The notes under the pieces were generated by a model that was not told the origin of the DNA, searched no databases, and was given only the letters and a program-made list of their open reading frames with translations. Below are positions 28,861 to 64,000 of a DNA stretch of 64,000 nt, piece after piece. This stretch comes from Candidatus Leptovillus gracilis. Its GTDB lineage: Bacteria > Chloroflexota > Anaerolineae > Promineifilales > Promineifilaceae. Position numbers and translations under genes: made by a program. Each line of letters starts with the position of its first letter. The first letter of the stretch is position 1. The DNA lies in NCBI GenBank assembly GCA_016716065.1, contig JADJXA010000025.1, positions 292,863 to 356,862 of the forward strand. Reading direction: 5' to 3'.

Positions 28861-28898
28861 GTCGTTTCACCCGTTACCCTGATTGAGGAATTAGAAGC

Positions 28899-32100: not shown

Positions 32101-32283
32101 AAGATGCTGCGCCAGACGGTGACGGTGGACTGGACGGTGAAGCAGAGCGCCCGCGCCAAAATCCGGGTGATGGTGAAGCGCATTTTGAAGAAGTATGGCT
32201 ATCCGCCAGACATGCAGGAAAAGGCGACGGACACGGTACTGGAACAGGCTGAACGAATTGCGGCGGATTGGACGGCCGTGTGA
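29110..32283 (+). CDS. hsdR: Type I restriction enzyme R subunit (endonuclease/helicase)
   Basis: Motif [13 protein letters not shown], motif [14 protein letters not shown], motif [10 protein letters not shown] and motif [10 protein letters not shown]. 1057 aa. Confidence 0.95.
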
Positions 32284-33444: not shown

Positions 33445-33566
33445 GTCGGACTCCTGGCAAGCCGTTTCTCAGCGTTTCACCATACGGTACTATTATCATC
33501 CCTACGCACAGTGTGATACTATATTCGGGGTTTGTTCGCTACTGCGAACAAACGGGGAATAACATC

Positions 33567-34433: not shown

Positions 34434-34679
34434 ATGTCTACAGCCAAGAATCTCGAGAATTTGGGCGCCAAACTCAAAGCAATTCGCAAACACTTGGGCT
34501 ATAGCCAGGAAGATATGGCAACCGCTGTGGGTAAAACGGGTAAGTCCCGCCGGTCACGGGTGCATGAGTGGGAGAAAGGGCTGCGGGAGCCAGAACTTTC
34601 ATGTTTATCTGCCTATGCCCGGCTGGCGGGGATCTCCGCCGACGATCTGCTTGATGACAGTGTGGAACTTCGTTTGTGA
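34434..34679 (+). CDS. XRE-family HTH transcriptional regulator
   Basis: LGAKLKAIRKHLGYSQEDMATAVGKTGKSRRSRVHEWEKGLREPELSCLSAYARLAGISADDLL is the Cro/C1 HTH pattern. Confidence 0.8.
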   Translation: MSTAKNLENLGAKLKAIRKHLGYSQEDMATAVGKTGKSRRSRVHEWEKGLREPELSCLSAYARLAGISADDLLDDSVELRL

Positions 34680-34725
34680 CAGCCATCCCCGACGCCCAGA
34701 ACTAAAAAATAACAAACGTGAACCT

Positions 34726-42708: not shown

Positions 42709-42715
42709 AAAGCCT

Positions 42716-46814: not shown

Positions 46815-47500
46815 TAATTACCCTTACCGATAATATTCAAACCCAAATCAATCGCCGGAAAGAACTAGAACAACGCCGCGATAACAGGAAGGATATTGAC
46901 GCCTCGTATCAAAGGCTCACAGAAATTAGTAAACTACTGCAAGAAACCTTAGCCAGCTTTCACCTCATCCAATCTCGGCTTACGAATGACCAGATAACTG
47001 AATCTATAAGGCAATTGCAGAACATCCAAAATAAGCTCAAAGAGTCCTACGAAAAGTTTGCTATTGAATATCGCCAAGTTCAAAAACTTATCGCAGTAGA
47101 AAAACTGGTGCAAGAGCTACAGGGTTTTCTTACCCGCGCTTGGGCGAGCTATGTCATGGCGCAAACACAGCCTCATTTCAATCTGCTGAATTTAGTTGAG
47201 AAACTACCAGAGGTGACTGTACAAGGCAGCCTAATTGCTCCTATACGGCAAAGACTTGAATCAGCATCGAGCCAATTACCGCGGAGAGAATTCCACCTTG
47301 CCCAATTCGATGCAGATCTGCAAGCGTTACAAAACAGTCTCGCAGACTTAAGCGGCTTGAGCGCAGAAGTCACCGAATTTTTGCGCCGAATACAAAAAGG
47401 TACCGCTACCATTACCGACCTTACAGATGAAGTGTTAGCCTGGTGCCGAGAAAATGAGCGCGCCAGGGCGTTTAAGATAAGTTTTGGGCAAGCCAAGTAA
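46811..47500 (+). CDS. dpdI: Coiled-coil protein in the DpdI position
   Basis: Heptad-rich, Gln/Leu/Glu-rich sequence. An ATGA overlap with the upstream gene and a TAATG overlap with the downstream gene. Confidence 0.45.
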   Translation: MIITLTDNIQTQINRRKELEQRRDNRKDIDASYQRLTEISKLLQETLASFHLIQSRLTNDQITESIRQLQNIQNKLKESYEKFAIEYRQVQKLIAVEKLVQELQGFLTRAWASYVMAQTQPHFNLLNLVEKLPEVTVQGSLIAPIRQRLESASSQLPRREFHLAQFDADLQALQNSLADLSGLSAEVTEFLRRIQKGTATITDLTDEVLAWCRENERARAFKISFGQAK

Positions 47501-50500: not shown

Positions 50501-52095
50501 AAGTTGCCCGTTTAGCGGTAGGGGTTCAGGTAGATACGCGCTATAAAAACGGCTCTTCATCTCGTTACACGCTCCAGTTTAGCAATGGTCAGGGAATGCT
50601 TGCAGCAATTGGATTTAGCGTGGCCGCTGACGCGCTTAAATTCAGCTTTTACCCACTAGATGTTTCCGCGTTATTCGCGCATCCACGTTGGCCCACCCTC
50701 TACCAAAATCTATCGCCTCACTATTTTCTACACCTGTTACAACAGGATCAGCGGGTAAGTAACCTGAGTAGTTTTGAGATTGAGTGGCTATGGCAGATTG
50801 AACTATCTATGCTAACGACCGTTGCCATCTCCCGCTCCTGTTCTTTACCTGAAGCCGCGCAAGAAGTGCAAGAGAATCGCCACGCTCTAGCCAATCATGC
50901 CCTTAATATCATCTTTCAAAGTCAGGCTATAGACGAAATAGGCGATTCCATCATGACCGGCAAATTGCATAAGCAATTGCTGGATCATCAAGTAAATCCT
51001 GACGTTCAGGCCGCTTTATCCGCTGCGGCGACGGCGCTGTGGCACCCCAACCAACAGGATTTAGCAGAATGGCTGTCTGGCTGTTATGCCTCTTCATTGG
51101 GCGCAGTTTTGTTTACGGCCGTTATCCAACTATTGCCCGATATTGAACCAAACGACCTCCATATGGACATCGCCGGCGGTTGCATCTGGATTTCCGAAGC
51201 TATCACCGGCGGCGTTGGACTAATCTCTAAAATCGTTACCGCAATTACGCAACATCCACGCCAGTTTGAGTTACAGCTATTAGACACCCTCGCCCATTGT
51301 CGCCGGAGCCAGCTTGCCCAGCAATTACGCGCAGTTGTCCAGCTTATACAAGAACAAAACCCCGAATTAGAAGCTGTTTTCGCGCAAGTTCGCCAAGAAA
51401 GCGACCTGTCCAGTCTGACAAACGCACAAAAGAGATTAACGCATATCTTGGAAGCGCATGGCATTCCGCCCACACGCCAACTTTTTGTCGCCCTGAATAA
51501 TAAAATCCTACGGGCGAATTCCGATGCAGATACCGACAAACTGATCGCTGATCTGGCGCATCATTGGGAGGCTGAAGAGAATCGCTTGGGAATTGCCATA
51601 GACTTGCGTGTGATCGCTGTGGCCGGTTATCAAATTCCCACAATACAGGAGCAAGTCAAGAAAGTGCTCAACCGGATTGGCGGCGGTCAGCCCGTTCAAG
51701 ATGAGACCCAAGTTTTCAATTTGCTCCAATCATTGCTCTGGCTAAATTGTGTAGATAGTTGCCCCGATTGCATCCAGACATGGAACCCGTATCAACCCCA
51801 AATACGGCCGTCGCGTGATCTGCTCACGCTTTTACTGGCGCCATATGGGCAGACCATCCTATACGGTGACGCCTACTGGGAGAGCCAACTACAAAAAGCA
51901 TTGGTAGCAGAGTATCAGGCCGAACTCCTTTGTGAACAGGCAGAGTTAGCCGAATGTAAAATTGCTCTGTTGCACGCCTTGACGCAGCCCATTGATATAG
52001 GCTTTCAAAGTTTTTACCCTGTTATCGAAAGTATTAGACAAGATAAACAGCAATGGCGATTCCATCTAATCATCCGCGAATTGGTGGGAGAATAA
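47500..52095 (+). CDS. dpdJ: Large DEAD/DEAH-box helicase with a C-terminal DUF1998/MZB-like Cys motif (DpdJ-like; DrmA/B-like)
   Basis: IGAGTGAGKTKAF (motif I), LVLLDEIHTYEG (motif II), GLSATL, ATSTLEVGFNDPNVGAVIQH and QRKGRAGR (motif VI). C-terminal NCVDSCPDC. Confidence 0.7.
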   Translation: MNHSDFNHLCNEVLSLIELEETKLLGWGFVNIRVDLRRDLLDMLSKLPATAVALWNKAQQTNYTEQDIIENLIERRLLFEVPDGYRSRFAETVRLLFLLRQRFSNDDWQVAPHLVSDFKLKLQPRRYPRRNITLEQLREALKPLRPSQLFEDSIATLLQGTSTQSLQLSQFQLDAIIQQIRNLQANNDQALVIGAGTGAGKTKAFYLPALAYIAENIQSDYATTQVLALYPRTELLKDQLAEAFSEARKLDSLLSKAGKRQISLGAYYGDTPSRAADFSSPHKPNGWKQADDLRGWICPYFTCPNELCNHAEMIWLQQDIDREAVANRSNTFGEHTRLQCRKECGFETDAGQLMLTREQMIKHPPDILFTTTEMLNRRLSRVAEHSLFGVNANNPPRLVLLDEIHTYEGISGAQVAYLLRRWRQARGTHGPQRSLCLVGLSATLTQAETFFAKLVGLPARSVQYIEPHENDLITEGMEYNIVLRGDPVSGTSLLSTSVQTAMLLGRALDNGDNPVSQGAFGSKTFAFTDKLDVINRWYYIQYDAEYNKRLSRWRKLPEPPDNQRRERMDLGQIWPMSERIGHDLEVALRLGRTTSQDRGFNTDAELVIATSTLEVGFNDPNVGAVIQHKAPRSMASFLQRKGRAGRQRGMRPWLALVVSAYGRDRWAFQHAEEVFDPRLATIHLPLENYYVQKIQAAFALLDWLALVLKKQGFDADVWKSLSSAPYSSSSWFSGQRKAMAAILRDLLNGKRLEEFTAYLTQALVLQHDETAVTSILWGEPRSLLYHVIPTILRQLETDWQAINRGNPQKWADNIAAMPLPAFVPSALFNDLNVPEVQIFVPTERWQSDETREEMLGLAQSLIEFAPGRANKRFALTHHADLAHWLQIPDPAPDAPHNLNIHALKAEFDPVPSSITVSDTSYLVYRPRAYHLNAVPDDVRTTSYSQLQWLSHFQPRSISTNANQSALAAQRQALAVFSSNSQWQRFFYKVESFTQSSGEWVEVARLAVGVQVDTRYKNGSSSRYTLQFSNGQGMLAAIGFSVAADALKFSFYPLDVSALFAHPRWPTLYQNLSPHYFLHLLQQDQRVSNLSSFEIEWLWQIELSMLTTVAISRSCSLPEAAQEVQENRHALANHALNIIFQSQAIDEIGDSIMTGKLHKQLLDHQVNPDVQAALSAAATALWHPNQQDLAEWLSGCYASSLGAVLFTAVIQLLPDIEPNDLHMDIAGGCIWISEAITGGVGLISKIVTAITQHPRQFELQLLDTLAHCRRSQLAQQLRAVVQLIQEQNPELEAVFAQVRQESDLSSLTNAQKRLTHILEAHGIPPTRQLFVALNNKILRANSDADTDKLIADLAHHWEAEENRLGIAIDLRVIAVAGYQIPTIQEQVKKVLNRIGGGQPVQDETQVFNLLQSLLWLNCVDSCPDCIQTWNPYQPQIRPSRDLLTLLLAPYGQTILYGDAYWESQLQKALVAEYQAELLCEQAELAECKIALLHALTQPIDIGFQSFYPVIESIRQDKQQWRFHLIIRELVGE

Positions 52096-52099: not shown

Positions 52100-52609
52100 A
52101 TGTCTAATCGCATGATCAAATCAGCCACCCGCAAAAATTCTTTACAGCTAACCGATTGCCTCAGCTCACTGTTTATGCTGGAATTGGCGCTGCCCAGCCA
52201 ACAGTTTTATTTGTTCTCGCCATGGATAAGTGATGTCGCTCTAGTAGATAACCGCTTTGGCCAAGTCAGGTCAATTGTCCCTAACCTTGAAGAGCGTCAA
52301 TTACCCCTCTCTACGCTGCTAAACGCAATGGCTTCGCGGGGAACGGCCGTTTACATTGTTTGCCGCCCCTCTTACGAGCGAACAGAAACGTTTTTGCGAA
52401 AATTATTGGTAGATATTCAGGTCAGGCAGGTGGAAACTCTGCACGAAAAAGGATTAATCACCGATCATTTTTATCTGCGCGGCTCCATGAACTTCACCTA
52501 TTCAGGTATTCACATCAACGATGAACATATCGAGCTAACCACAGACACAGAACAGGTTGCTCGCGCCTTGTTGGAAGCGCGACACCGATGGGAAACTCTT
52601 GGAAAATGA
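52100..52609 (+). CDS. dpdK: Phospholipase-D-family (HKD) nuclease (DpdK-like)
   Basis: HKD motif LHEKGLITDHFYLRGSMNF (HxKxxxxD...GSxN) in a 169-aa protein. Confidence 0.75.
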   Translation: MSNRMIKSATRKNSLQLTDCLSSLFMLELALPSQQFYLFSPWISDVALVDNRFGQVRSIVPNLEERQLPLSTLLNAMASRGTAVYIVCRPSYERTETFLRKLLVDIQVRQVETLHEKGLITDHFYLRGSMNFTYSGIHINDEHIELTTDTEQVARALLEARHRWETLGK

Positions 52610-54351
52610 CCACTGTAACCTTTGCCAACCCTGATCAATACGCCTTTGCTCAGGAGTTTGTCCGTCCTCTTGTTAATCAGGGCATTCGCGCCATGGGCGA
52701 TCCTCATCAGCTAACGCTGACCACAGATCACGCCGCCGTTAACCTGCTGTTTCAGCGTCTGGCGAAAACAAATGCCGCCATATTGCCTTACTTGGGAAAT
52801 CGTTCGGATCAATGGTTGCTAGTTGGGCAAGACCGTCGCGCCCTGGATGAAATGTTGGCGCGTGTGACCGCCTTTGTCATTCCTTCTTACGCTGAATTTG
52901 GCGATGGGGCACGCTTTGCCGAACTTTCTCTCTTTGACCCGCAAAAGAACATACTGAACCAATTGGGAGCGCAACTGTACAATCTTGGTTACTACAAGTG
53001 GGAGTCGTCCCCGAGGTACCGCGAAACAATTCTTGCCCGGCTATCACTGTGGCTCAAGTTGGAAGAAATCGAACCGTCCCTTGAACTGCCTCCTCAGTAT
53101 GGGTACCGGGACCTGTATCAACTATTTACGCAAGCATTGAGTGTTAAAAACTGGCCGACGGCCGCAAATGTTTTGTCTGAGATGCGCCGGCTCAATCTGA
53201 CAACCGCCGAAAACCTGCAATTCTTGCATGTTCAATGGTTAGCTGAACAACAAAGATGGCAAGACATTTGGGATGATCCAGATTTTGCAATGCTCGCCAG
53301 GTTAAGAATGCCCCGCGATGTACGGTCGGCCATGTTGACCACTTTCCATCATGTGAACCTGCTGGCTTTAGAACGAGCGGGGCAATGGGAAACGGCCGTT
53401 GCCATCTTCCAAGAGATGCAAGGGCGTTTAGGTACATTACTGGTAGGACGATTTGGCGTTGCGCAAGCTCCCGTTCTGCGCGTTTTTGGTTATCAGGCAC
53501 TACTCAACAACGATGCCACCACATTAGAAAGTCTCCTAGCTGAGGCTTCAGATTTAGAGACGATTCACTGCCTCAACCAGTTAAAAAGCCGGCTGACCCC
53601 ATCAGACGCCAAAACGAAAGTTCTCACTCAAGACCCCTTACAACAAGCCATCCTGGCTTTAAAAGCAAATGATTACGACACCGTTATTCAAGCAATAAAA
53701 GCTATTGACGACATAACCGCCCGGGTTTTGTTGGCTATTGAAATCGCCTATCACAGCCGTGATGATCTGCTAATACAAGAAGCATGGACTATTTACCAGA
53801 GCCTTTCCCCAGAGCAGAAACAAGCGCTCATGGTCAACGGCCGTTATGTGGGTATTTACCTCGATTTCTTGCGGGAAAGTAGTACCGATCAACCAAAATC
53901 CATATGGGCCACAGAAGTAAAGAAAGCACGGGACGCCGCCTGGGATGGCGTGTGTGAAGTTGAATATTATCTGAGGCGTTTGGTTGAAGACCGGTATGCC
54001 AAGAAATTTGGAGATGTCTGGGAGTCTCGCGTTAACCCTGAATTACGCGAGAGATGGGCAGGCACACAAACTAAAGACGAAAAAACCTTCGCCCGCTATG
54101 GAATGCGAAAATCTTCACTGTTGGACTACACTTACATGGGTGATTTGGTCGGGTTAATCAACAATCAGTGGCCACTCTTTGAAGATATTTTGGGCGCAGG
54201 CAAGGCAGCCAAACAAGAGTTTACACGGGTGACAGAAGCGGTAATTCGTGTCCGAAACCCTCTGGCGCACAACAGGGATGTGCCTCTCAATGAATTACGC
54301 CGGGCTGATGTTTACTGTGCTGATTTGCTAATGCTTCTCAGGGGGCCATGA
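52606..54351 (+). CDS. Helical-repeat protein with a C-terminal Swt1-like HEPN domain
   Basis: The C-terminus carries YYLRRLVEDRY...MGDLVGLINNQW...EAVIRVRNPLAHNRDVPLNEL. The RNPLAH segment is the Rx4H HEPN motif. ATGA overlap with the dpdK stop. The ORF is open from 52588. Confidence 0.65.
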   Translation: MTTVTFANPDQYAFAQEFVRPLVNQGIRAMGDPHQLTLTTDHAAVNLLFQRLAKTNAAILPYLGNRSDQWLLVGQDRRALDEMLARVTAFVIPSYAEFGDGARFAELSLFDPQKNILNQLGAQLYNLGYYKWESSPRYRETILARLSLWLKLEEIEPSLELPPQYGYRDLYQLFTQALSVKNWPTAANVLSEMRRLNLTTAENLQFLHVQWLAEQQRWQDIWDDPDFAMLARLRMPRDVRSAMLTTFHHVNLLALERAGQWETAVAIFQEMQGRLGTLLVGRFGVAQAPVLRVFGYQALLNNDATTLESLLAEASDLETIHCLNQLKSRLTPSDAKTKVLTQDPLQQAILALKANDYDTVIQAIKAIDDITARVLLAIEIAYHSRDDLLIQEAWTIYQSLSPEQKQALMVNGRYVGIYLDFLRESSTDQPKSIWATEVKKARDAAWDGVCEVEYYLRRLVEDRYAKKFGDVWESRVNPELRERWAGTQTKDEKTFARYGMRKSSLLDYTYMGDLVGLINNQWPLFEDILGAGKAAKQEFTRVTEAVIRVRNPLAHNRDVPLNELRRADVYCADLLMLLRGP

Positions 54352-54386: not shown

Positions 54387-54581
54387 CTACTCAAACGGCC
54401 GTACCATCTCAATCTCATACACTTCCGCTAAAGAAACGTCTATCTCATCCAGTGCCTTCTGAACATCGCGTGTTATCAACGCCACTGTATCGGGCGCCAA
54501 TGTCACGTCAACTTCCTGCCCCTCCATTAACTCAAGCACGACGTGCAAAACCTTGTCTGGATTTGTATCAGCCTGTTTCAT
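54387..54581 (-). CDS. Small acidic protein (64 aa)
   Basis: Acidic sequence. ATGA overlap with the stop of the 852-aa ATPase gene indicates translational coupling. Confidence 0.45.
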   Translation of the reverse strand: MKQADTNPDKVLHVVLELMEGQEVDVTLAPDTVALITRDVQKALDEIDVSLAEVYEIEMVRPFE

Positions 54582-56935
54582 GTTTCTCGCTCCTTGTAAG
54601 ATCCTTCTTCTGTTTCAACCAGATGCAGACGTAAGGCGGTGTACACATCAGGCACTAACATCCGTATCTCTTCCTGTACTTCAGGAGACACTTCCGTCAA
54701 AGCCACGCTCTCACCACGTCGCCAGGCATCAACCACCCGACTTGTGCGATCTGATAAGGTTGTAGACCCCGCCTGTTCACATTGCTCGATATAACGCTGG
54801 ACCTGGCTCAATACGTTGGCTAACGGCCGTCCCTCCAGCAAATAATCCTTGTCTATTTCTGACACATCCATCTGGGCCAATCTGGAAAACCACGTCTCAT
54901 AAGGTACGTCTTTCAACAATTGCCCAATGAGAACACTATCGTAAAACCCCTGACGCAACTCGAAAAAATCATCGAACAGAAACTGAAATGCCTGCCAGCT
55001 CCTGTCACTGATTTGTTCATGCCGCCACCGATAACGCTGATGCGTGTCATTGACCCAACACCAGAAATCAGCAGGAAAACCTGGTAAACGGTAGGCTCCT
55101 TCGCCTTTGACAACCAGGGCAAATGTTTGCAATACTAACGCCAGCAGCTCCACCTTCATACCCAACTGAGTCTCAAGATCAAGCCTTACACGTTGGCGAT
55201 AGTTGTCTGCTGTCATTTGCAAAGAGACAAGCTCTTTGGCCGTCGCCAATTGTTCTTGTAACTTTTTCGTTTCACTGCCGGTCGCTGTTCCGTACCGGCA
55301 TAAGTCGAAAGCTATCATGCCAATATCGCGCGTTAGCGCGATGCCATCCTGTGCTTCATCTACTCCTTCCAGATAAATGGGCAGGCGCACATCCAGATAC
55401 GTTTTGCGCCAGCGTAGCGCGCCACGCGGCTTGGCTACATGCTCCCGATATATCCAGTCAATGGGCTGCACAGTGCGCAGCCAACGTGCCGCACCCTGAC
55501 GCAAGGACCGCAGCATCTGCCGGTTGACCGACTTGCCCAGAAGCCAGTCTCTAACAACCATCTGGCTTTCGTCCTCAATGATCAGGCTGCTCGTTGCTTC
55601 GCGGGGCTGGTAAAAACGAATGAGAGGCTCAACGGGAATTGCCCTTTGTTCTGCGGTAATGGCGAAGGCCAGCAGCAGAGTTCCCGGCAGAGCAATCAGA
55701 TTATCACTGTCTGGCTCCAACAAAGGTCCGTAAAACTCGCACAAACGCGCCAGACGACTGTCTTCCACTCTGGCGATATATTCCGGCCGAGCGAAATCTA
55801 CCAGCACATCCAACGGGTCTTCACCCGTGGTAGTGCGCCGCAATATCTCGTGCAGATACCGAACAAAATACCGTACTTTCCCTTTACCCGCAGGCAAAGC
55901 GCGGTAAATGCGCACCAGCGCTTCCCGCGTGAATGGGAAATAGGGCAGGCCCGGTACAGTGTTGTCATTCATCTCTGTCAGATAGCGAGATGCAAACTCA
56001 TCACAGTTTGCTTCGGTTAAGACGTAAGACTCCTTGCCCGTTTCATCTGACAACCACATTTTCCCGACACGGTCATCTATCGTGTCCAGATGGCTGATGC
56101 GCTGCAACAATCCGCGGCCGCGCAAGCTATCTTCAAACGCGGCTGGCGTTAGCCCTAAAACAACGTCCCAGTTACCTGCTTCCAACGTCAGGAGGTAATC
56201 CAGTAGATCAGTGGCAAAGATATTAAGGGATTGCACCAAATCGTCCACCAGCAAAAGAGGCCGCTGTCCCTGTTCTGCCTGACAATGATACGAAATACGC
56301 TGCATCGTTTCAGCCAGCGATAGACCTTCCAGCAGATGGTCACGAAAAGCGGTGGTCAATTGATGACGGAACTGTTCGTAAGCTACCGGAACGGGCAGGG
56401 ATGTTTCTCGAAGAATAGCCGACCAGGTTTCCTGACCAATCAGCTCCACGCCCATAGACTCGTCTATATCTCCTGGTTCAAACGCCAGGATTCTGTCTAC
56501 GTGTGGTTGCAGCGCATTCAGCAAGCGGTAGAAAAGAGCGTTGATCAGGTCATCCGAATCGAGAAGGTTCTCCAGAGCGAACAAGAGAATCATTTTAGTG
56601 ACCGTGCGCGATTTCTGCCGAGCGGCACTCCAGCGCTGTGTCGTCGTTTCGTTGAGAAACTGATTGGGCAACAAAGTCAGGAAACGATTGACGATGCTAA
56701 GAACATCTAGCTCATGGCGCGAAATACGCACCATTACCTGGCCCCGCTGCGGTTCTTCCTGGAGGATGCGCGTCTCTAGCCATTTAATCAGCTCCGATTT
56801 TCCCGATCCCGGGGCGCCGTACAACACCCAGATGCGGTTGCCCAAACCATTCTGTTGCCCCAGAACACGCCGCAGTAACGCATCCTCTGTCAACATTTCG
56901 AGATGGCCGTTAGGCTGATAGCTGCGCATGGTCAT
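54578..56935 (-). CDS. Large P-loop NTPase (unknown family; Walker A context resembles the DpdH-position protein)
   Basis: Walker A IWVLYGAPGSGKSELIKWLE and Walker B RPLLLVDDLV, followed by a long helical C-terminus. The ORF is open up to 57136, but that would overlap the upstream gene by 118 nt. MTMRSYQ at 56935 is chosen; the start is uncertain. Confidence 0.6.
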   Translation of the reverse strand: MTMRSYQPNGHLEMLTEDALLRRVLGQQNGLGNRIWVLYGAPGSGKSELIKWLETRILQEEPQRGQVMVRISRHELDVLSIVNRFLTLLPNQFLNETTTQRWSAARQKSRTVTKMILLFALENLLDSDDLINALFYRLLNALQPHVDRILAFEPGDIDESMGVELIGQETWSAILRETSLPVPVAYEQFRHQLTTAFRDHLLEGLSLAETMQRISYHCQAEQGQRPLLLVDDLVQSLNIFATDLLDYLLTLEAGNWDVVLGLTPAAFEDSLRGRGLLQRISHLDTIDDRVGKMWLSDETGKESYVLTEANCDEFASRYLTEMNDNTVPGLPYFPFTREALVRIYRALPAGKGKVRYFVRYLHEILRRTTTGEDPLDVLVDFARPEYIARVEDSRLARLCEFYGPLLEPDSDNLIALPGTLLLAFAITAEQRAIPVEPLIRFYQPREATSSLIIEDESQMVVRDWLLGKSVNRQMLRSLRQGAARWLRTVQPIDWIYREHVAKPRGALRWRKTYLDVRLPIYLEGVDEAQDGIALTRDIGMIAFDLCRYGTATGSETKKLQEQLATAKELVSLQMTADNYRQRVRLDLETQLGMKVELLALVLQTFALVVKGEGAYRLPGFPADFWCWVNDTHQRYRWRHEQISDRSWQAFQFLFDDFFELRQGFYDSVLIGQLLKDVPYETWFSRLAQMDVSEIDKDYLLEGRPLANVLSQVQRYIEQCEQAGSTTLSDRTSRVVDAWRRGESVALTEVSPEVQEEIRMLVPDVYTALRLHLVETEEGSYKERET

Positions 56936-57018
56936 GGGATAGTGGGTGCGCAAAAAGAGATCGGCGCCCAATAAATACCGTTGGTCGGCAGTGGGCGCAA
57001 AGATAGATAGGTTACTAC

Positions 57019-57789
57019 TCAAGCCCCACCCCCGTTGCAAAGAAGATAACGTAACCGCTGTTCCGCGAAATAGGGCTTGTTGGGTGCATCCTGATAAGGG
57101 CGCATTAAGATGTTTCGCTGCTGATGTAAGTACCACAACGGCTGACCAACTGCGTGCGCCAGGTTGCCGGTTTGTGTCTGGTGGGGTAAATAGCCCGCCA
57201 GGTGCTCTTCCAAAAAGTCCTGGATAAACCCCTCGCGTCTATCCCACACGACGAGAATTTCTTGTAACAGGGTGGGGGAATAAACGCATTGAAACCCATC
57301 GCCGATGCGTCGCCCTATACCCAGGTAAGCCATTACTCGTTTCCAGGAACGGATTTTTTCCTGACTGAGACCGCCTAACTCAGCGACAGGTCGCAACTTG
57401 TTCGCCTCGGTGTGAACGTCACTCACGTACAGATGATTCGGTTTGATAAAAAGCTCTTGTAGCAGCAGCAAGTACAACGAATCTAATTCGTGGTTAGGCG
57501 TGATTTTTCGACTGGCAAGCGCCTGCAAACGAGCAATCACGGTTAACCGGAAGGAGGTTGTTGGCCTTTCCGGTTCCCCCAGACAAAACCCATCGCGGTC
57601 TTCGATCAGAAAAGCGGCGACGAGAAAGGAGAGAGCGTCGTCAATGCTTTGGGGTGAAACAGCTCGCTTGTCTTTATAGTCTGGAAGACAGGCCTGATAA
57701 ATCGCCTGGCGCGAGACCGGCTTCGTATTCTGAGCCACAAAGGTGTAGACGACTTCCAGTTCTGGACCGGATACAGGACGAAATAGCAT
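57019..57789 (-). CDS. Hypothetical protein with an N-terminal wHTH-like segment
   Basis: LEVVYTFVAQNTKPVSRQAIYQACL...SIDDALSFLVAAFLIE looks like a winged helix. It is the first gene of the minus-strand three-gene operon, divergent from the short TGT-like gene. Confidence 0.5.
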   Translation of the reverse strand: MLFRPVSGPELEVVYTFVAQNTKPVSRQAIYQACLPDYKDKRAVSPQSIDDALSFLVAAFLIEDRDGFCLGEPERPTTSFRLTVIARLQALASRKITPNHELDSLYLLLLQELFIKPNHLYVSDVHTEANKLRPVAELGGLSQEKIRSWKRVMAYLGIGRRIGDGFQCVYSPTLLQEILVVWDRREGFIQDFLEEHLAGYLPHQTQTGNLAHAVGQPLWYLHQQRNILMRPYQDAPNKPYFAEQRLRYLLCNGGGA

Positions 57790-57812
57790 GATCTCTCCAG
57801 GTTAGCGAACCA

Positions 57813-57841
57813 TTGACGCAGATCGCTACGTGTGCTAGTTT
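57813..57841 (+). promoter_or_regulatory. Sigma70-like promoter for the TGT-like/queC unit
   Basis: ttgacg (57813-57818)-17 nt ending in tgc-tagttt (57836-57841), 40 nt upstream of the ATG at 57884. Confidence 0.35.
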
Positions 57842-57883
57842 ACACAGTGGTTAACGTGTTCGCAATAAAGAACAAGATGTGAC

Positions 57884-58783
57884 ATGGACTTCTACGTAAG
57901 TTGGTATCCCGGAGATCCCCTTTATCCCGTCTACGATCCAGATTGCGCCTTACTGGTGAGTATTACGTCGGTGGCTCAAGACTGGACAATTGATCGTCTG
58001 GCAACGCTTCCGCGCCGACTGCTGATAGATAGCGGTGGTTACCGCTTTGCGATTGCCCCTGACGATGCTTTATCACCCAAGCAAGTGCTACAAAGGCAAC
58101 TGGCGCTGCTGAACGGGGCGACAATTCCGACGATCATCTGCGCTCGTGATTATCCCCTACTCGACAAATCTATCAGCCCCAATGAGCGGGATAAAAGTAT
58201 TACCCAAACAATAGCCTTTGCTTATGAGCTAAAGACTCTTATTAACCAGAATGGACTGGAACACCACGTTACACCGATGGCCGTTATCCAGGGCAATGAT
58301 GAGGATTCATTGGCTTACTGTGCCAGAGAGTTGCAGGCTATCGGCTTTCCCTTGTACGGGATAGGTTCACTGGCGGAGTTACGAAAGCACAACCTGATTA
58401 TGGAACGAGTGAAGGTTGTGGCCAACATCATTGGCCCGGAGAAGCTGCACATCTTTGGTATCGGCGCAGTGCAAACAGCGCAGACTTTCCAGAAAATGGG
58501 TATCCACTCCCTTGATTCTTCACGACCGGCTAAAGCCGCCGCTTACAATGAGGTTCTTTACAGTAATCCCTATCGTCGTTTTGGGATTTTGGAACCTCCG
58601 TCAATTCCGCTAAAAGGTCGCATTGCGCCGCATAAACGATTAAGCGCTCCTTTGCACTGCCACTGCCCCATATGCCAGGAAGATGCAACACGGATATTGG
58701 GTGTCGGCAAGCGTAGCCATATCCGCGACCGGGCCTTGCACAACTATTACCATCTCAAAAAGGCTTTTCTTAGCCAAAACTAA
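57884..58783 (+). CDS. Short TGT-superfamily transglycosylase (second, phage-like DpdA-type paralog)
   Basis: LLIDSGGYRF (catalytic DSGG motif), AVIQGN, YGIGSLA, HIFGIGAV, LDSSRPAKAA and the zinc motif CHCPICQ...HNYYH. 299 aa. Confidence 0.7.
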   Translation: MDFYVSWYPGDPLYPVYDPDCALLVSITSVAQDWTIDRLATLPRRLLIDSGGYRFAIAPDDALSPKQVLQRQLALLNGATIPTIICARDYPLLDKSISPNERDKSITQTIAFAYELKTLINQNGLEHHVTPMAVIQGNDEDSLAYCARELQAIGFPLYGIGSLAELRKHNLIMERVKVVANIIGPEKLHIFGIGAVQTAQTFQKMGIHSLDSSRPAKAAAYNEVLYSNPYRRFGILEPPSIPLKGRIAPHKRLSAPLHCHCPICQEDATRILGVGKRSHIRDRALHNYYHLKKAFLSQN

Positions 58784-59003
58784 GTCCCTGCCATTCGTCC
58801 ATCTCACTGTTACTGCTATAATCAGTTTCATGCCGGTGGCAGAAAAGGGTTACACGACCCGTACCCGGCTTACCAAAACTGCGGTATTTTGTGCCCCGTT
58901 TCCTTTCTACCGCAACAAAGTCTTGGCTTGTCACAATGCCTGCTGCTGCTCCGGCAGTTGTCACGCAGTGGCAAGCGTCAGCACGACAAGGAAGTGAACA
59001 AAT

Positions 59004-59672
59004 ATGATAGATTCAGTCGTCATTGTCAGTGGGGGAATGGACAGCGTGACCCTGCTGCACTATTTGATCAAAATAGAAAAGCGTAACCCGGCGGTAATCA
59101 CCTTTGGTTACGGACAAAAACATGACAAGGAAATTGAGTACGCCAGGGCACAGGCAACCGCGCTTGGTTGCGAGAACCATCTGGTGCTAGATTTAGCGCT
59201 GCTGCGTCCGCTCTTTGCCAACTCGGCATTGGTATCACTGGAAACGGCCGTGCCCAACATCCAGGATGTTCTTGGCGATCCACAGCCACCAACCTATGTC
59301 CCTAACCGCAACATGATTTTCCTGGCTCTTGCTGCTGCTTTCGCTGAAACGCAAGACGTCAGCGATATTTTTTATGGCGCACAACGCCACGATGTATACG
59401 GATATTGGGATACGACTCCTCAATTCCTGGAGCAATTGAACCAGGTTTATAAACTCAATCGCCGAACGCCGGTGACAATCCTTGCTCCTTTCGTTCAGTA
59501 TTCCAAAGCAGATATTTTGCGTCAGGGTCTCGAAATGGGTGTGGATTACGGCCTCACCTGGTCTTGTTACGAAGGGCGCGAGATGGCTTGCGGCCAATGT
59601 CCCACTTGCGCCGAAAGACTCAAAGCCTTTGAGGAAATGGGCCTGATGGACCCCTTGCCTTATGCAGTATGA
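59004..59672 (+). CDS. queC: 7-cyano-7-deazaguanine (preQ0) synthase
   Basis: VVIVSGGMDSVTLL (PP-loop SGGxDS), FGYGQKHDKEIEYA, YVPNRNMIFL and the C-terminal zinc motif CGQCPTCAERLKAF. Confidence 0.9.
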   Translation: MIDSVVIVSGGMDSVTLLHYLIKIEKRNPAVITFGYGQKHDKEIEYARAQATALGCENHLVLDLALLRPLFANSALVSLETAVPNIQDVLGDPQPPTYVPNRNMIFLALAAAFAETQDVSDIFYGAQRHDVYGYWDTTPQFLEQLNQVYKLNRRTPVTILAPFVQYSKADILRQGLEMGVDYGLTWSCYEGREMACGQCPTCAERLKAFEEMGLMDPLPYAV

Positions 59673-59796
59673 TGGCGCGCCTTTTGGCAAGAGTGTCCCG
59701 ATTGTGATGTGCTTGATGATTGCCTGACAGCAGCAGTGATCTGGACACTCTCAACTTAGCGAAGCAAACCGAAACATAATTCTGAAGGAGAAAGGT

Positions 59797-60309
59797 ATGA
59801 TTTACGTTGTCATGTATCTGGTGGCGATTGTTCTGGCGAATTTGACGGTGGCCGCTTTTGGCCCCAACATGGTCATCATCAATGCTTTTCTGTTCATCGG
59901 GTTGGATCTGACAGCGCGAGACCGGCTACATGATGCCTGGCGGGGCAATCGTTTATTCGTGAAGATGGCTGCTTTAATCGCCGTCGGATCCCTACTGTCC
60001 TGGGTACTCAATCGTAACGCAGGACAGATTGCGCTGGCTTCATTCGTTGCTTTTGCCGCCGCCGCTACGGTAGACGCTGTCGTCTATCATGTGTTGGGCA
60101 AATACCCTCGTTGGTTGCGTATCAATGGCAGTAATATTCCCAGCGCTCTGGTTGATTCGTTGGTCTTTCCTACTTTGGCGTTTGGCGCTTTTCTGCCGTC
60201 TATTGTTTTGGGCCAGTTCATTGCCAAGGTGCTTGGAGGATTTGTATGGTCTCTGGTTTTTCGGTGGACAGAGCAGCGGACAATGGCTAAAGCCAAACAG
60301 CCAAGTTAA
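59797..60309 (+). CDS. yhhQ: VUT/YhhQ-family queuosine-precursor transporter
   Basis: A multi-TM 170-aa protein. ANLTVAAFGP, INAFLFIGLDLTARDRLHD and SALVDSLVFPTLAF match the DUF165/YhhQ pattern. Confidence 0.7.
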   Translation: MIYVVMYLVAIVLANLTVAAFGPNMVIINAFLFIGLDLTARDRLHDAWRGNRLFVKMAALIAVGSLLSWVLNRNAGQIALASFVAFAAAATVDAVVYHVLGKYPRWLRINGSNIPSALVDSLVFPTLAFGAFLPSIVLGQFIAKVLGGFVWSLVFRWTEQRTMAKAKQPS

Positions 60310-60417: not shown

Positions 60418-60861
60418 CTAAACCGCCGATTTTGACCCGATGTACATCATAATTTGCTGCATCAGTTCCACCCAGGAAACTCCATTCACCGTCACTTTTG
60501 AAATCGGCCATAGGAAACGCGGCGCCCAGTGACGCCGGGAATGGGTCGGGATGTCAATGATGATGTGCAAAGCCCAGGCTCCAAGCACGCGACGTGGCAA
60601 ACGGCCGTTTCGCCAATAGATAAACCAGGCCACCAGGACGAGCAAAGGCAGGCTATGGAAGACGTGATGCCCTCCTTCCATCCAGGTAGGCGGATCCGGC
60701 CATTCTTGAGTTTTTAATGCCAATCCTAACTGACCCCGCCTTATTACCCAGGCGGGATACGTCAGGTAGAACGGCGCGTCGGGCAAGACACCAGCCAGGA
60801 GTACAATTGGCTCTCGCCCAAAAACTTTTGCGGTAACTATAAGGTGAGTCAAGGGATCCAT
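60418..60861 (-). CDS. Membrane-bound metal-dependent hydrolase (DUF457/YdjM-like)
   Basis: N-terminal MDPLTHLIV, later HHVFHSL and HIIIDIPTH histidine clusters, and hydrophobic segments. Confidence 0.65.
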   Translation of the reverse strand: MDPLTHLIVTAKVFGREPIVLLAGVLPDAPFYLTYPAWVIRRGQLGLALKTQEWPDPPTWMEGGHHVFHSLPLLVLVAWFIYWRNGRLPRRVLGAWALHIIIDIPTHSRRHWAPRFLWPISKVTVNGVSWVELMQQIMMYIGSKSAV

Positions 60862-61116: not shown

Positions 61117-64000
61117 TCACCCGCCGGGAACACTGGTCAGTGGCCTTGATGAGATGGCCACCACCACCCGAAAACCGAGATAGGCGGCTCGGAGGTCTGG
61201 GTTAAGGTTGTAGCGGAAGGCCGCGCGCGCGAGGTCCGGGCCGCGGTGCCACGAACCGCCGCGCAACACGCGGGAGTCCCGGCTTTGGTCTACGCCATCC
61301 GCTTCCGGTTCGCCATATTTGTTCCGACACCATTCCCATACATTGCCGCTCAGGTCATATAGTTCCAACGCCTCATTTTTACCGGATGGATACAAGCCAA
61401 CGGCCGTTGGCTGCCCAATCCTCCCCTCGTCTATGTTCGCCCAGTCTGTGTTAAAGCGGCTGCCCCAGGGGTAAAAACGGCCGTCAGGATACCTTGCCGC
61501 CGCTTCCCACTCAAACTCATGCGGCAGACGAATGTCCATCTCTAGCTTATCGCTCAGCCAGCGGCAAAAGGCCACCGCCTGATACCAGCTTACCGTCTCG
61601 CGGGGATGATTGGCGTAAGGAAATTCGGGTTCAGAAAACTGTCGTTCGTCATCGGGCATACCATCCCACCACTTCGGTTCATCCCGGTCGGGCGCATCCA
61701 CAAAGCATTTAAACTGGGCGTTGGTGATGGGATAACGCGCCAAACAAATATCATGCGGGATGGTCACTTGCTGCTGTGTAAGGCTCACATAAGCCTCTTC
61801 GTCCCCTCCGATTGTGTAGCGCCCGGCTTCCAGCCAATTTCCCCAGGCAATGTCCGGTAGCTTTACCTCGCCGCGCTCCACCACGCCTACACCGGGGCGG
61901 GTATCTTCAAGCCAGCGCCCCAAGGCGTGGCCGGCTTGGGCCCGATGCGCTGGTTTCAGGCTGCTTTCGGCCACCAACGCCGCCTCCAGCCAAGCACGCC
62001 CGCCCGCTTCCACCAGCACAAAAGGATGTTCCACCTCCTTGCCACGCACAAAACGCATGAAGTTGGTTTCATGAATGGTCTGCGCCGCCAGAACAGCGCA
62101 AAACAACTGCCATTCGGACACATCCGACCGCGGCTGCCCGGCCGTCAGCCGCTCCACCAGCGATTTCACCCGGTAAGCGTCGGCGCGTGCCTGCCCCGCC
62201 GCCAGCAAGAAAATTTCCCGCCACCAGGCGGTATCACGCTGTAACCGCCTGTACAGCCCCTCCACCGGGTCATCTGGCAGCGACCAGACGTGGGCCGCCG
62301 CCAGATACTCCTGAAACGTGCGGTGAGGGAAGACGTAGGTGAAATGCTCTCTGGCTTGCAGCAGCCCAGATCGCTGTTGGATGTAGTCCGTCACTTCTTT
62401 GGCCCGGTCGTAGCTGCCCACCAAGGGCAGCAATCCCTCCCACAATTCGTCACGGCCAATGTCGGCGGCCTGTTCATCCCGGTTGCGCTGCCCTTCCTGC
62501 CGCTCGTGGGCGGCGAAGGCGATCGCTTCCAACACGCTGCGCACCTCTTCCCGCCGCAAATCCAGGCGGGCGATGATGCCGGGTTCCACCTGCCGCGAAC
62601 CATCCGGTCGCCGCACCAGTCGGTTTTCCCAATGGGAAAGGAGCAGATTGATGGCCCGGTCGTACAGGTCGGCGCGGTTTTCCGGCAGGTCTCCATATCG
62701 GCCATGTACTTGGGCCATCAGGGTGAGCAGCAGCGGGTATTGACCCAATTCGCGCAAATGGGGCTTCGCCAGCACCGCGTCGGCCAGCCGTTTCGCCTCT
62801 TGCGCCTGCTGCGGCAAGTCCCACTTCTGGCGCGGGCCGGTGACGCGATACCACGTTTCCGTAAACTGCCGGATTTGCCCCTCCTTGAACAAGGCCAGGT
62901 CAATCACCGGAAATTGTGCTTCTGGCAGCCGCCAGGCGTCGTCTTTTTTGTAGGCATACTCGCGGCAGGTCACGATGACCTTGCAGGTGTCCAGCGGCCC
63001 GGCGAAGTCGGCGATGGTTTGTTTGATCAGGCTGCGACGGCCGTCTACCACGCTCTCCGGCACTTCATCCAGGCCATCAAAGAAGATGACGCCACCATCC
63101 GCCAGCAGTTTTTCTTTGACAGAACTGTACGCCTCCCGGCAGCCCCAATCGGGGAAGAGCTTTTCTTCCAGGTAGCGCCAGACCAGCCCGGCTTTGGTGT
63201 CGGGCTGGTTGTCGCCTACAGTGTCGGCCAGCCAGGCGGCAAAGCGGCGCAGGACGATGCGCACCGGCAGCAGCGGCGTCTCCGGCCAATCCGGCAGAGC
63301 GGTGGGGCCACCGGCAAGGCGCTGCCGCGCCAGGGTGGTTGCCAGGTAGTTGACCAGGGTGCTTTTGCCGCCGCCGGGATAGCCGAGGATGACAACTCGT
63401 GGCAAAGCGCCGGTGACGGAAACGGCCGTGAGAGGCTGTGTCTCTTTTTCTTCTTTGGGGGAACGGCCGTGCGCTGTCTCGTCGGGGAATCTTCGCAGCG
63501 CCTCGGCCACCGTCTGGCCGGGCGCGCGCCGGATCACCTGCGTCCCCCACGCCGCGTACAGGGTGGTGAACACATCGGTCAGCCGCACCTCGCCGCCCTC
63601 GTCATCCAGGAAACGCTCATCCACTTCCGCCAGGTCCAGCCGGTTGCACTGGTCAATCAGGGTTTTCAGATAAGCCGTCTCCCAGGTCTGCTTTTCGGCG
63701 CGGCCGCCCCACTGAAACACGGTTTGCTGCTGGATGATCTGCGGCCCGCTGACCACATTTTCGGCCACGATCCGGCCGGCCTGGATGCCTACGTGTTGGC
63801 CGGGTGAGGCTTGCAGCGCTGCCACCATTTGCCGCATCAAGACCACCATCTGCTGCTGCAAAGCGGTTTGCGCCCAGCCTTGATGCACCTGGATGATGGG
63901 TTGCAGCGCGGTTTCAGCCGCGGCCGTTTCCAGAAAGGCGGCTTCAAAGGCGGCCACCGCTTCGGGGAAGCGCAGGCCGGGCAGCGTCTCCGGGTCGTAG
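61117..64000 (-). CDS. STAND NTPase: NACHT domain fused to a C-terminal FGE/SUMF1 domain. The N-terminus probably lies beyond the window.
   Basis: Walker A VVILGYPGGGKSTLVNYL and Walker B VIFFDGLDEV. The C-terminus carries YPITNAQFKCFVD, TVSWYQAVAFCRWL, RLPHEFEWEAAAR, GNVWEWCRNKY and LRGGSWH. The frame is open upstream of the GTG at 63957 to the window edge. Confidence 0.85.
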   Translation of the reverse strand, partial: YDPETLPGLRFPEAVAAFEAAFLETAAAETALQPIIQVHQGWAQTALQQQMVVLMRQMVAALQASPGQHVGIQAGRIVAENVVSGPQIIQQQTVFQWGGRAEKQTWETAYLKTLIDQCNRLDLAEVDERFLDDEGGEVRLTDVFTTLYAAWGTQVIRRAPGQTVAEALRRFPDETAHGRSPKEEKETQPLTAVSVTGALPRVVILGYPGGGKSTLVNYLATTLARQRLAGGPTALPDWPETPLLPVRIVLRRFAAWLADTVGDNQPDTKAGLVWRYLEEKLFPDWGCREAYSSVKEKLLADGGVIFFDGLDEVPESVVDGRRSLIKQTIADFAGPLDTCKVIVTCREYAYKKDDAWRLPEAQFPVIDLALFKEGQIRQFTETWYRVTGPRQKWDLPQQAQEAKRLADAVLAKPHLRELGQYPLLLTLMAQVHGRYGDLPENRADLYDRAINLLLSHWENRLVRRPDGSRQVEPGIIARLDLRREEVRSVLEAIAFAAHERQEGQRNRDEQAADIGRDELWEGLLPLVGSYDRAKEVTDYIQQRSGLLQAREHFTYVFPHRTFQEYLAAAHVWSLPDDPVEGLYRRLQRDTAWWREIFLLAAGQARADAYRVKSLVERLTAGQPRSDVSEWQLFCAVLAAQTIHETNFMRFVRGKEVEHPFVLVEAGGRAWLEAALVAESSLKPAHRAQAGHALGRWLEDTRPGVGVVERGEVKLPDIAWGNWLEAGRYTIGGDEEAYVSLTQQQVTIPHDICLARYPITNAQFKCFVDAPDRDEPKWWDGMPDDERQFSEPEFPYANHPRETVSWYQAVAFCRWLSDKLEMDIRLPHEFEWEAAARYPDGRFYPWGSRFNTDWANIDEGRIGQPTAVGLYPSGKNEALELYDLSGNVWEWCRNKYGEPEADGVDQSRDSRVLRGGSWHRGPDLARAAFRYNLNPDLRAAYLGFRVVVAISSRPLTSVPGG

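Follow-up and report, generated by a model that had tools for sequence, protein, structure and literature searches.

A compact DpdA-like transglycosylase with putative DpdG- and DpdH-like partners beside a Dpd island of Candidatus Leptovillus gracilis

Why should a defence island that already encodes a DNA-modifying transglycosylase carry a second one? This question is raised by a 64,000-nt stretch of the Candidatus Leptovillus gracilis contig JADJXA010000025.1 (the window in the following, meaning the whole stretch analysed). Besides the 418-aa DpdA of a canonical Dpd island, the window encodes a very different member of the tRNA-guanine transglycosylase (TGT) superfamily, a protein of 299 aa called sTGT here (57,884–58,783, plus strand), 22 kb downstream of dpdA. 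A first-pass annotation of the sequence had noticed the two proteins, had grouped sTGT with the queC and transporter genes that follow it and had likened it to short phage enzymes. We confirmed the presence of both proteins. The two strongest partners of sTGT lie outside the region highlighted by that annotation, at 54,578–57,789 on the minus strand; we call these genes G2 and H2, and the three genes together the module. On balance, we lean slightly towards the reading that sTGT is a second DNA 7-deazaguanine transglycosylase, which would work with G2 and H2 as a BrxC-like ATPase pair and would be served by a separate precursor cassette.

The short transglycosylase and its relatives

All four motifs named in the first-pass annotation were found, each occurring once in a six-frame translation: DSGGYRF at 58,028 and CHCPIC at 58,658 in the sTGT open reading frame (ORF), and GDCGAFSY at 34,981 and CNCSIC at 35,806 in that of DpdA. 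Read from the first ATG, the DpdA ORF (34,564–35,979) has 471 aa; the alignment with the DpdA model begins at Met54, which leaves a protein of 418 aa. sTGT matches the Pfam family TGT (PF01702) with an e-value of 7.6e-13 and 48.7 bits, above the cutoff of 26.3.

Residue roles were transferred via alignments from DpdA of Salmonella Montevideo, in which Asp95 is the general acid/base, Asp130 binds the base and Asp256 is the nucleophile, and which further possesses a His181-Gly182 pair and a CxCx2Cx22H zinc site (PMC10164549). The respective counterparts in sTGT are Asp49 of the DSGG motif, Asp89, Asp211, Gln136-Gly137 and a zinc site of Cys259, Cys261, Cys264 and His286, with the same CxCx2Cx22H spacing from Cys to His as in DpdA; Gly161-Ser162 complete the candidate catalytic or binding residues. 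The catalytic and zinc residues of DpdA and TGT are invariant or nearly so among 29 sTGT family members, and Asp49, Asp89, Gln136-Gly137 and Asp211 are each at least 90% conserved, i.e., the catalytic core is kept. Judged by its active-site residues, sTGT is predicted to be a catalytically intact enzyme. In the alignment, the loop contacting the 7-substituent of the base reads Gly161-Ser162-Leu-Ala (GSLA) in sTGT, GGM(A/V) in DpdA and GGLA in the bacterial TGT for 7-aminomethyl-7-deazaguanine (preQ1), a difference that may bear on the substrate of sTGT.

The AlphaFold model of sTGT (predicted local distance difference test score, pLDDT, of 90.5) is a TIM barrel of the TGT type. Foldseek aligned it to TGT structures with TMq values of 0.70–0.78, the best solved structures being bacterial tRNA TGTs (~0.76), a ranking that reflects the content of the PDB, with ~200 entries for TGT and only one for DpdA.

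The genes are full length, retain the family-invariant residues and are not pseudogenes, a concern that had been raised together with the first annotation. Compared with the orthologues in a close relative (L006), the nonsynonymous divergence (dN) is 0.10–0.21, the synonymous divergence (dS) is saturated and dN/dS amounts to 0.035–0.07 where computable; the genes are under purifying selection. G2, sTGT, H2 and the transporter gene are covered by wastewater metatranscriptome contigs that are 90–97% alike, which is weak evidence of transcription because of the low depth, the origin of these sequences from related strains and possible DNA carry-over. A 104-aa ORF (58,683–58,997) that overlaps sTGT and the leader region downstream of it in another frame was treated as spurious, and small ORFs 3′ of sTGT in two other loci (L002 and L004) showed no conservation elsewhere.

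The sTGT family is tight, with proteins of 295–340 aa. A word-indexed search yielded 181 matches, and in the first searches all matches with a named source and all genome loci belonged to Chloroflexota. When 1.84 billion representatives were searched exhaustively with a profile, 48 clusters were obtained at e-values of at most 1e-30, below which followed further full-length relatives of ~300 aa and then DpdA-sized proteins of 400–700 aa. Among the NCBIfam models, sTGT scored best against DpdA (NF041059; 64.5 bits), followed by generic TGT (38 bits), ArcTGT (TIGR00432; 27.2 bits) and bacterial TGT (TIGR00430; 25.0 bits). The sTGT profile matched DpdA in the PDB (7ui4) with an e-value of 8.4e-11, ArcTGT (1iq8) with 7.4e-10, QTRT1 with 4.5e-5 and bacterial TGT with ~1e-3, while hhalign against the DpdA of the window itself gave a probability of 98.6% and an e-value of 9.6e-16. 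Bacterial DpdA thus appears to be the nearest sequence relative of sTGT, followed by ArcTGT and then by the tRNA TGTs. The clustering with tRNA TGTs that had been considered as the counter-case was not seen, with scores far below the cutoffs of 306.75 bits (TIGR00430) and 350 bits (TIGR00432).

Yet sTGT is not a member of the DpdA family, because its score lies far under the cutoff of 200 bits, with only residues 49–220 aligned (435.9 bits for the DpdA of the window), and because it lacks the N-terminal insertion and the helical bundle of insertion 8. The insertions Ins1, Ins2 and a large Ins8 with a four-helix bundle have been described as conserved across the DpdA family. In the alignment, sTGT lacks Ins1, and ~40 residues separate the nucleophile Asp from the zinc motif versus ~120 in DpdA; the model has only a β-hairpin in place of the ~70-residue Ins8 bundle. 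By these comparisons, sTGT forms a separate compact clade outside the DpdA family proper.

The suggested resemblance to short phage-type enzymes was not borne out. A tblastn search with sTGT of 50,697 phage genomes gave no match, there was no PHROG match and no relative in IMG/VR, hhalign against the DpdA of phage PEAT2 yielded a probability of just 4.7% versus the 98.6% for the window DpdA, and phmmer found no match to the DpdAs of phages 9g, PEAT2 and AB3P2, representatives of DpdA2, DpdA3 and DpdA4 not being individually compared. Structural matches in BFVD reached TMq values of at most 0.71 at 12–20% identity. In the alignment, sTGT has the QG motif, a helix that follows strand 4 and a complete CxCxxC...H zinc site, none of which is found in the DpdAs of 9g, PEAT2 and AB3P2. 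We therefore rejected a phage-type identity, as no sequence search retrieved a phage relative and only the length is similar; on the evidence here, the sTGT clade would be carried by bacteria, not by phages.

In a neighbour-joining tree of 23 sequences, sTGT, bacterial DpdA and phage DpdA formed three clean clades, and sTGT was placed beside three phage sequences. The phylogeny proposed with the first annotation thus separated the three groups, but its deep topology is unreliable: the sequences are short and the branches long, ArcTGT and DpdA2–4 are not included, no maximum-likelihood method was used, and the phage placement contradicts all pairwise and profile scores, the pairwise searches detecting no phage DpdA. 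Annotation pipelines name members of the sTGT family "7-cyano-7-deazaguanine tRNA-ribosyltransferase" (JGI) or "queuine tRNA-ribosyltransferase" (PGAP), and PGAP labels G2 and H2 as "hypothetical protein" and "P-loop NTPase fold protein", respectively.

Partner genes and precursor cassette

We collected about 70 sTGT loci from genomes and metagenomes (labelled L001, L002 and so on). At sTGT identities of 38–93%, G2 adjoins sTGT in 46 of 49 loci that reach far enough upstream, and H2 is present in 39 of 40, versus queC directly downstream in 8 of 39. The functional unit of sTGT, queC and transporter proposed in the first-pass annotation therefore did not stand; G2 and H2, not queC and the transporter, are the conserved partners of sTGT. 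Two sTGT fragments that are truncated and one plasmid from Deinococcus make up the exceptions. On this plasmid, p_TS293_6 of Deinococcus taeanensis, sTGT and an H2-like gene are adjacent, beside dpdE, dpdF and dpdH, and a gene for 243 aa that was not detected by the G2 profile takes the place of G2. On plasmid pART37 of Paenibacillus sp. 37, VUT, dpdC::dpdA, a hypothetical gene, sTGT, G2, H2, dpdJ, dpdK and dpdD follow in one direction, with queE-queD-queC alongside. sTGT, G2 and H2 are thus a conserved three-gene unit in three bacterial phyla, represented in Deinococcus by sTGT and H2 only.

In the window, G2 (57,019–57,789, minus strand; 256 aa) is divergent from sTGT across a 94-bp intergenic region (57,790–57,883), presumably a shared promoter region, and this divergent layout is conserved among the Chloroflexota loci. 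H2 (54,578–57,022, minus strand) encodes an 814-aa P-loop ATPase with the Walker A motif GAPGSGKS. It probably starts with the TTG at 57,022, overlapping the G2 stop codon; the homologues do not support a longer ORF to 57,136. The hhalign comparison of H2 with the DpdH of the window (probability 97.5%, e-value 5.8e-12, 361 columns) covered the N-terminal half of DpdH (~430 residues). H2 also matches AAA_22 (5.8e-7) and the DpdH model NF041065 with 49.3 bits over the N-terminal 120 residues only, below the cutoff of 450. By these scores, H2 is a paralogue of DpdH, not an orthologue. The 157 matches found for H2 indicate a family similar in size to that of sTGT. With the H2 model (pLDDT 83.7), Foldseek gave weak AAA+, STAND, ORC and BrxC matches (BrxC chains 9zll_D, e-value 0.024, and 9zdx_C, 0.12) and no nuclease domain.

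G2 is a distant and weakly supported homologue of DpdG, with 18.5 bits against NF041064 (cutoff 80). This model was weakly matched by 7 of 16 G2 family members (best e-value 5.5e-4), and the position of G2 directly before the H gene corresponds to the DpdG-DpdH order. No match of G2 was found in Pfam or PHROGs, nor of G2 or H2 among PDB sequences.

H2 is split into two ORFs in a Dictyobacter kobayashii isolate (L017, 5,826–8,779) and in one metagenome-assembled genome (MAG; L013, 5,863–8,743), and the long-read MAG L008 has frameshifts in H2 as well as in sTGT; these may be real pseudogenes or assembly indels.

Other Dpd-type genes lie within 10 kb in 25 of the 27 well-flanked loci, and DpdA and sTGT occur together in 15 of these. 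Four kinds of neighbourhood were distinguished. Full Dpd islands contain the module or have it at their end in the window, L001, L006, L013, L017, L021, L028, L046, L063 and others. A compact arrangement, sTGT | G2-H2-dpdC::dpdA, is found in L012, L016 and L027, adjoined in L016 and L027 by genes for a UvrD-like helicase and a PD-(D/E)xK nuclease. In the third kind (L002, L004, L022 and L029), the module is within 10 kb of a gene for a DpdJ-like helicase of 1,950–1,965 aa with a DUF1998/MZB domain, in L002, L004 and L029 also with a DpdD-like C-terminal region, often with a SIR2-STAND-FGE-sulfatase gene in between. The fourth kind, without a recognisable Dpd gene within ~10 kb, comprises L014 and L045. 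sTGT is the sole transglycosylase nearby in the latter two kinds. Its gene is co-directional with dpdC::dpdA, VUT, queC and a DndB-type dpdB in L028 and lies between dpdC and dpdA in Ktedonobacter sp. SOSP1-52.

Two further features were observed around the module. A gene for a large STAND NTPase (NACHT or nSTAND1, in some cases with SIR2) that carries a fused FGE-sulfatase domain is repeatedly found beside it, in the window (61,117–63,957 and 16,146–17,117, both minus strand) and in several unrelated loci (L004, 3,466–6,300; L022, 12,523–15,735; L029, 15,860–19,126; and L045), and may be a module partner or just another defence gene. Many DpdAs near the module are 675–713 aa long, with an N-terminal extension of ~300 aa (L012, L013, L016, L017, L027, L028 and L031); such a long DpdA is also encoded on an Allocoleopsis PCC 7113 plasmid (L025, 753–2,849). 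The extension in L028 weakly matches DUF6884, which would make it a DpdC::DpdA fusion, and the one in Dictyobacter (L017) has no Pfam match.

As stated in the first-pass annotation, the genes after sTGT are queC and one for an importer of the VUT type, not folE, queD or queE, and within the 64-kb window no FolE, QueD or QueE was found with Pfam or with phmmer using Paenibacillus, Allocoleopsis and phage 9g references. The queC gene (59,004–59,672, plus strand) encodes a 222-aa synthase of 7-cyano-7-deazaguanine (preQ0), with 183.7 bits against TIGR00364 (cutoff 150.3), a Pfam QueC e-value of 3e-59, the PP-loop VSGGMDS and a C-terminal Cys cluster. The next gene (59,797–60,309, plus strand) encodes a short VUT/YhhQ-family membrane protein of 170 aa with about five hydrophobic segments, presumably an importer of 7-deazapurine precursors; it scores 54 bits against Pfam Vut_1 (cutoff 27.2) and 31.8 bits against TIGR00697 (cutoff 50.95).

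This transporter matches phrog_4899 over its full length (2.2e-38), a short subtype also present in phages, and shares 50% identity with gp18 of Pectobacterium phage PEAT2; in that phage, the genes for gp18 and for a short DpdA overlap (L019, 6,001–7,226). The same pairing of short DpdA and VUT occurs in Acinetobacter phage AB3P2 (L020, 4,276–5,468). The phage affinity thus belongs to the transporter, not to sTGT. The phage pair of DpdA and importer looks like a mobile salvage pair, and the similarity between the Chloroflexota and phage VUT proteins suggests horizontal transfer. Just after the transporter gene, a convergent gene (60,418–60,861, minus strand) encodes a membrane protein of 147 aa that is YdjM-like (26 bits with Pfam, just under the cutoff of 29); L094 has a gene at the same position and strand.

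The loci with queC directly downstream of sTGT are those of the closest relatives of the window, including the 93%-identical L094, and the order sTGT-queC-VUT is kept in L001, L006, L008 and L094. Of the 27 well-flanked loci, 4 were seen to have the short type of VUT. Upstream of queC (58,814–58,888, plus strand), an extended −10 box TGnTATAAT (TATAAT at 58,817–58,822) precedes a 59-nt leader (58,830–58,888). This leader is nearly invariant in the window, L006 (~10,932–11,010), L008 (~4,047–4,125), L033 (~10,932–11,010) and L085 (~274–352), except for a variable hairpin loop, and stands before queF-queC in L033 and L085. A consensus promoter scan passed over the TATAAT box because of the lack of a −35 match. 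Rfam searches of the 54.0–61.5 kb region and, at e-values of up to 10, of the 161-nt leader region gave no match and hence no known preQ1 riboswitch. A structured RNA could not be called, as there was no covariation among only five sequences and the folding z-score was 0.18. It is a candidate for an operator or leader of an undescribed type that responds to deazapurines.

A relative with 85% identity, L033, possesses a queF-queC-GATase-VUT operon (11,106–13,386; GATase, glutamine amidotransferase), and in L085 the leader likewise precedes queF, with queC and the GATase-like and VUT genes behind it. The 131-aa product of queF in these relatives matches Bacillus subtilis QueF (4f8b, e-value 3e-19) and has the NADPH motif ESKSLKLY; the GATase-like protein of 232 aa has an N-terminal MCGIFG motif and no PDB relative. 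In the window, neither queF nor a GATase-like gene is present in the corresponding intervals (58,889–59,003 and 59,673–59,796), and L008 retains a 3′ remnant of queF (4,147–4,242). In light of the operon in L033 and L085 and of this remnant, the cassette of the window appears to be a reduced or decayed version. The queF and GATase-like genes of relatives are a hint that, in some lineages, preQ1 or some further derivative is of importance. Elsewhere, queC-queD-queE lies downstream of sTGT in L054, queD-queE on the short contig L048, and queC within the G2-H2 operon in L063, L066 and L071. There are thus at least four arrangements of preQ0-pathway genes by the module: queC-VUT, queF-queC-GATase-VUT, queC-queD-queE and queC inside the G2-H2 operon. 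Such repeated, independent recruitment of deazapurine genes ties the module to free 7-deazaguanine bases. The salvage-fed supply proposed in the first-pass annotation is plausible for the window, but the cassette there looks decayed from a larger one, as kept in L033, or, with queC-queD-queE, in L054.

Possible roles of the module

Our proposals for the substrate base, for the DNA target and for what G2 and H2 do are inferred. In double-stranded DNA, sTGT would replace guanine with a 7-deazaguanine base, most likely preQ0 and possibly preQ1; Asp211 would be the nucleophile and Asp49 the general acid/base, and the zinc site would pin the structure. G2 and H2 would give ATP-dependent DNA engagement or target selection, as DpdB does for DpdA, and/or would read the mark. 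Restriction would be performed by the nearest helicase-nuclease set, in the window DpdJ, DpdK and DpdD, common to the canonical system. queC and the short VUT gene would constitute a separately promoted, lineage-specific supply cassette yielding preQ0 from imported or host-made 7-carboxy-7-deazaguanine (CDG) or preQ0, which would have lost the queF and GATase-like genes kept by a close relative.

Salmonella DpdA requires the ATPase activity of DpdB, and the BREX (bacteriophage exclusion) methyltransferase probably relies on BrxB/BrxC. No DpdB (DGQHR/DndB) was found in the window by Pfam, by regular expressions or by phmmer with two DpdB references, nor in 20 Chloroflexota loci searched; it is present near the module in L028. 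dpdB is lacking in 8% of the genomes with dpdA (PMC5699537). For the window, H2 is a candidate DpdB substitute.

Several observations weigh against this reading. L028 has both DpdB and the module, so that we rejected the replacement of DpdB by H2 as a general rule. DpdG and DpdH are restriction genes and not modification genes in Salmonella (PMC10164549), and therefore G2 and H2 might be readers or effectors instead of helpers of the transglycosylase. The homology of G2 to DpdG is weak, with hhalign e-values of 0.0017–0.0036 and probabilities of 9–15%, including with a DpdG profile of three sequences. H2 resembles DpdH in its N-terminal half only, and its C-terminal half has neither a fold match nor a sequence relative in the PDB. 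No match to DpdA, DpdJ, DpdD or DpdE was found within ~10 kb of the module in L014 and L045. Finally, the inserted base could be preQ1 or another one, as GSLA is nearer to the GGLA of the preQ1-TGT and close relatives have queF.

The reading of two marks or two specificities, mentioned in the first-pass annotation, remains viable, and it overlaps with the one we favour. In this case, sTGT, G2 and H2 would be a writer and reader parallel to DpdA, DpdG and DpdH, for a chemically or sequence-distinct mark (e.g., preQ1 or another motif), while DpdA and DpdC make dADG (the deoxynucleoside of 7-amido-7-deazaguanine). It is precisely the functions A, G and H that are present twice and inherited together, the 7-substituent loops differ, queF, which converts preQ0 to preQ1, is directly downstream of sTGT in L033 and L085, and DpdA co-occurs with sTGT in more than half of the well-flanked loci. 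However, queF is absent from the window and from most loci, the substrate is unpredictable from the sequence alone, and a second mark would be unneeded where sTGT is the only transglycosylase, i.e., in the loci with only the DpdJ-like helicase and in the two Dpd-free loci. We consider this a less probable explanation, perhaps one chance among several.

Equally tentative is a broader proposal, in which sTGT, G2 and H2 would be the core of an autonomous, minimal second Dpd type that writes and checks. Here, the ATPase pair would replace the ParB-like DpdB in powering and directing base exchange in duplex DNA, the effectors would be interchangeable (DpdJ/K/D, the giant DpdJ::DpdD-like fusion, or UvrD with the PD-(D/E)xK nuclease), preQ1 instead of preQ0 would perhaps be written where queF is present, so that genomes would bear two different deazaguanine marks, and the leader would be an undescribed riboswitch for deazapurines.

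It is improbable that sTGT, queC and the transporter form a self-sufficient, phage-type salvage module independent of the minus-strand genes. The conserved gene order in the four closest relatives, the pairing of short VUT and short DpdA in PEAT2 and AB3P2 with no que genes nearby, and the lack of folE, queD and queE in the window would fit. But queC and the short VUT are infrequent against the near-universal G2 and H2, a promoter-like box and a leader of their own set queC and VUT apart from sTGT, phage relatives of sTGT are lacking, and QueC requires CDG, which a preQ0/preQ1 importer is not known to provide.

We give a similarly low chance to sTGT being an effector or sensor that, with G2 and H2, attacks or traps invader DNA bearing 7-deazaguanine, by base exchange or through a covalent Asp-DNA intermediate, and so complements Dpd, a system that phages with modified DNA could escape. 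Homologues of G2 and H2 belong to the restriction side of Dpd, the glycosylases Dag1 and Dag2 defend against 7-deazaguanine-modified phage DNA (bioRxiv 10.1101/2025.10.29.685425), and TGT chemistry runs via a covalent enzyme–nucleic acid intermediate (PMC10164549). Against this, genes for preQ0/preQ1 synthesis or import were repeatedly recruited beside sTGT, which indicates a need for free base, i.e., insertion, and the sTGT gene of L028 runs in the same direction as dpdC::dpdA, queC and dpdB, which are modification genes. For the decoy or anti-defence relationship between the two transglycosylases suggested in the first-pass annotation, we found nothing in support.

A minimal tRNA-guanine transglycosylase of the archaeosine or queuosine type, located in a defence island by chance, is very improbable, since the best Foldseek hits and the JGI name stand against 25 versus 307 and 27 versus 350 bits for the tRNA families, the absence of PUA or C-terminal tRNA-binding domains in the 299 aa and a strict linkage to G2, H2 and Dpd-type genes across three phyla.

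Compared with bacterial Dpd, as described in Salmonella Montevideo with DpdA/B/C for modification and DpdD–K for restriction (PMC10164549, PMC5699537), sTGT has the same catalytic aspartates and zinc site and a Dpd-island setting, H2 is homologous to DpdH and G2 probably to DpdG. Unlike in Dpd, the transglycosylase is coupled to a DpdG-/DpdH-like pair and not to DpdB, a ParB/DndB-like ATPase, and H2 has 814 aa versus ~1,070 for DpdH, the likeness being confined to the N-terminal half. The occurrence of queC, VUT and other preQ0 genes (queD, queE, yhhQ) in dpd islands was already known (GATOR-GC preprint).

The phage DpdA modules (PEAT2 gp18/gp19 and AB3P2) share with sTGT the short length (243–317 aa), the adjoining short VUT and the apparent reliance on host-made or imported precursor, but have no detectable sequence relationship with it, possess neither QG nor a complete zinc site (nor does 9g), and have no G2 or H2 among the annotated flanking genes of PEAT2 and AB3P2. 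DpdH and DpdI have been equated with BREX BrxC (YprA-helicase preprint). Like the BREX core (BrxB-BrxC, PglX), the module links a DNA-modifying enzyme genetically with a P-loop ATPase of the BrxC class, and a small partner protein comes before this ATPase. The modifying enzyme is a transglycosylase (base exchange) instead of a methyltransferase, and no PglZ or BrxL was seen. With tRNA TGT and ArcTGT, sTGT shares the fold, the catalytic and zinc residues, a minimal barrel without the large insertion of DpdA and the GSLA loop, similar to GGLA; it differs by lacking the N-terminal β-sheet lid segment, PUA and C-terminal domains, and in its context of defence and DNA genes, not queA/yajC or archaeosine.

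To our knowledge, Dpd is the largest restriction-modification system known, and the roles of DpdD to DpdK, including DpdG and DpdH, are not yet established. The reduced unit of one small transglycosylase, a DpdG-like and a DpdH-like protein, and sometimes one helicase-nuclease, would offer a simpler handle on the G and H functions and on how base exchange in duplex DNA is powered without DpdB. sTGT would add a bacterial clade to the DpdA classification (bDpdA, DpdA1–4). If its mark differs from that of canonical DpdA, there would be two deazaguanine marks in these genomes, and the queF/queC leader is a riboswitch candidate. We found no description of a compact DpdA-like clade with DpdG-/DpdH-like paralogues in the literature, the coverage of which was incomplete, so that an earlier account is possible.

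The surrounding island

The canonical Dpd island of the window (33,441–54,351, plus strand) was delineated by NCBIfam and PADLOC matches and lacks dpdB. It consists of dpdC-like (33,441–34,331), dpdA (34,723–35,979), dpdE (36,105–40,130), dpdF (40,087–42,708), dpdG (42,662–43,597), dpdH (43,602–46,814), dpdI-like (46,811–47,500), dpdJ (47,500–52,095), dpdK (52,100–52,609) and dpdD (52,588–54,351), all on the plus strand. The module is appended at the dpdD end.

Upstream of dpdC, a gene for a 337-aa protein (32,431–33,444, plus strand) had no family match; the C-terminus, DVVV...YFYEIK, resembles a PD-(D/E)xK nuclease motif. Next to the island lies a type I restriction-modification operon of hsdM, hsdS and hsdR (24,663–32,283, plus strand), with a gene for a 385-aa protein containing EAD7 (Effector-associated domain 7) between hsdS and hsdR.

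The G+C content of the island is 46–50%. It is 46–52% from ~26 to 60 kb, with a single bin of 62% at 30–32 kb, compared with 56–69% in most of the flanking DNA. The window defence genes are probably located on a mobile element. Further upstream, genes similar to P22 AR N-terminal/ORF6C antirepressors, ParA and FtsK/SpoIIIE (12,668–14,811 and 20,151–22,196) resemble those of plasmids or integrative and conjugative elements, and in Dictyobacter (L017) the module adjoins VirB4- and VirD4-like conjugation genes.

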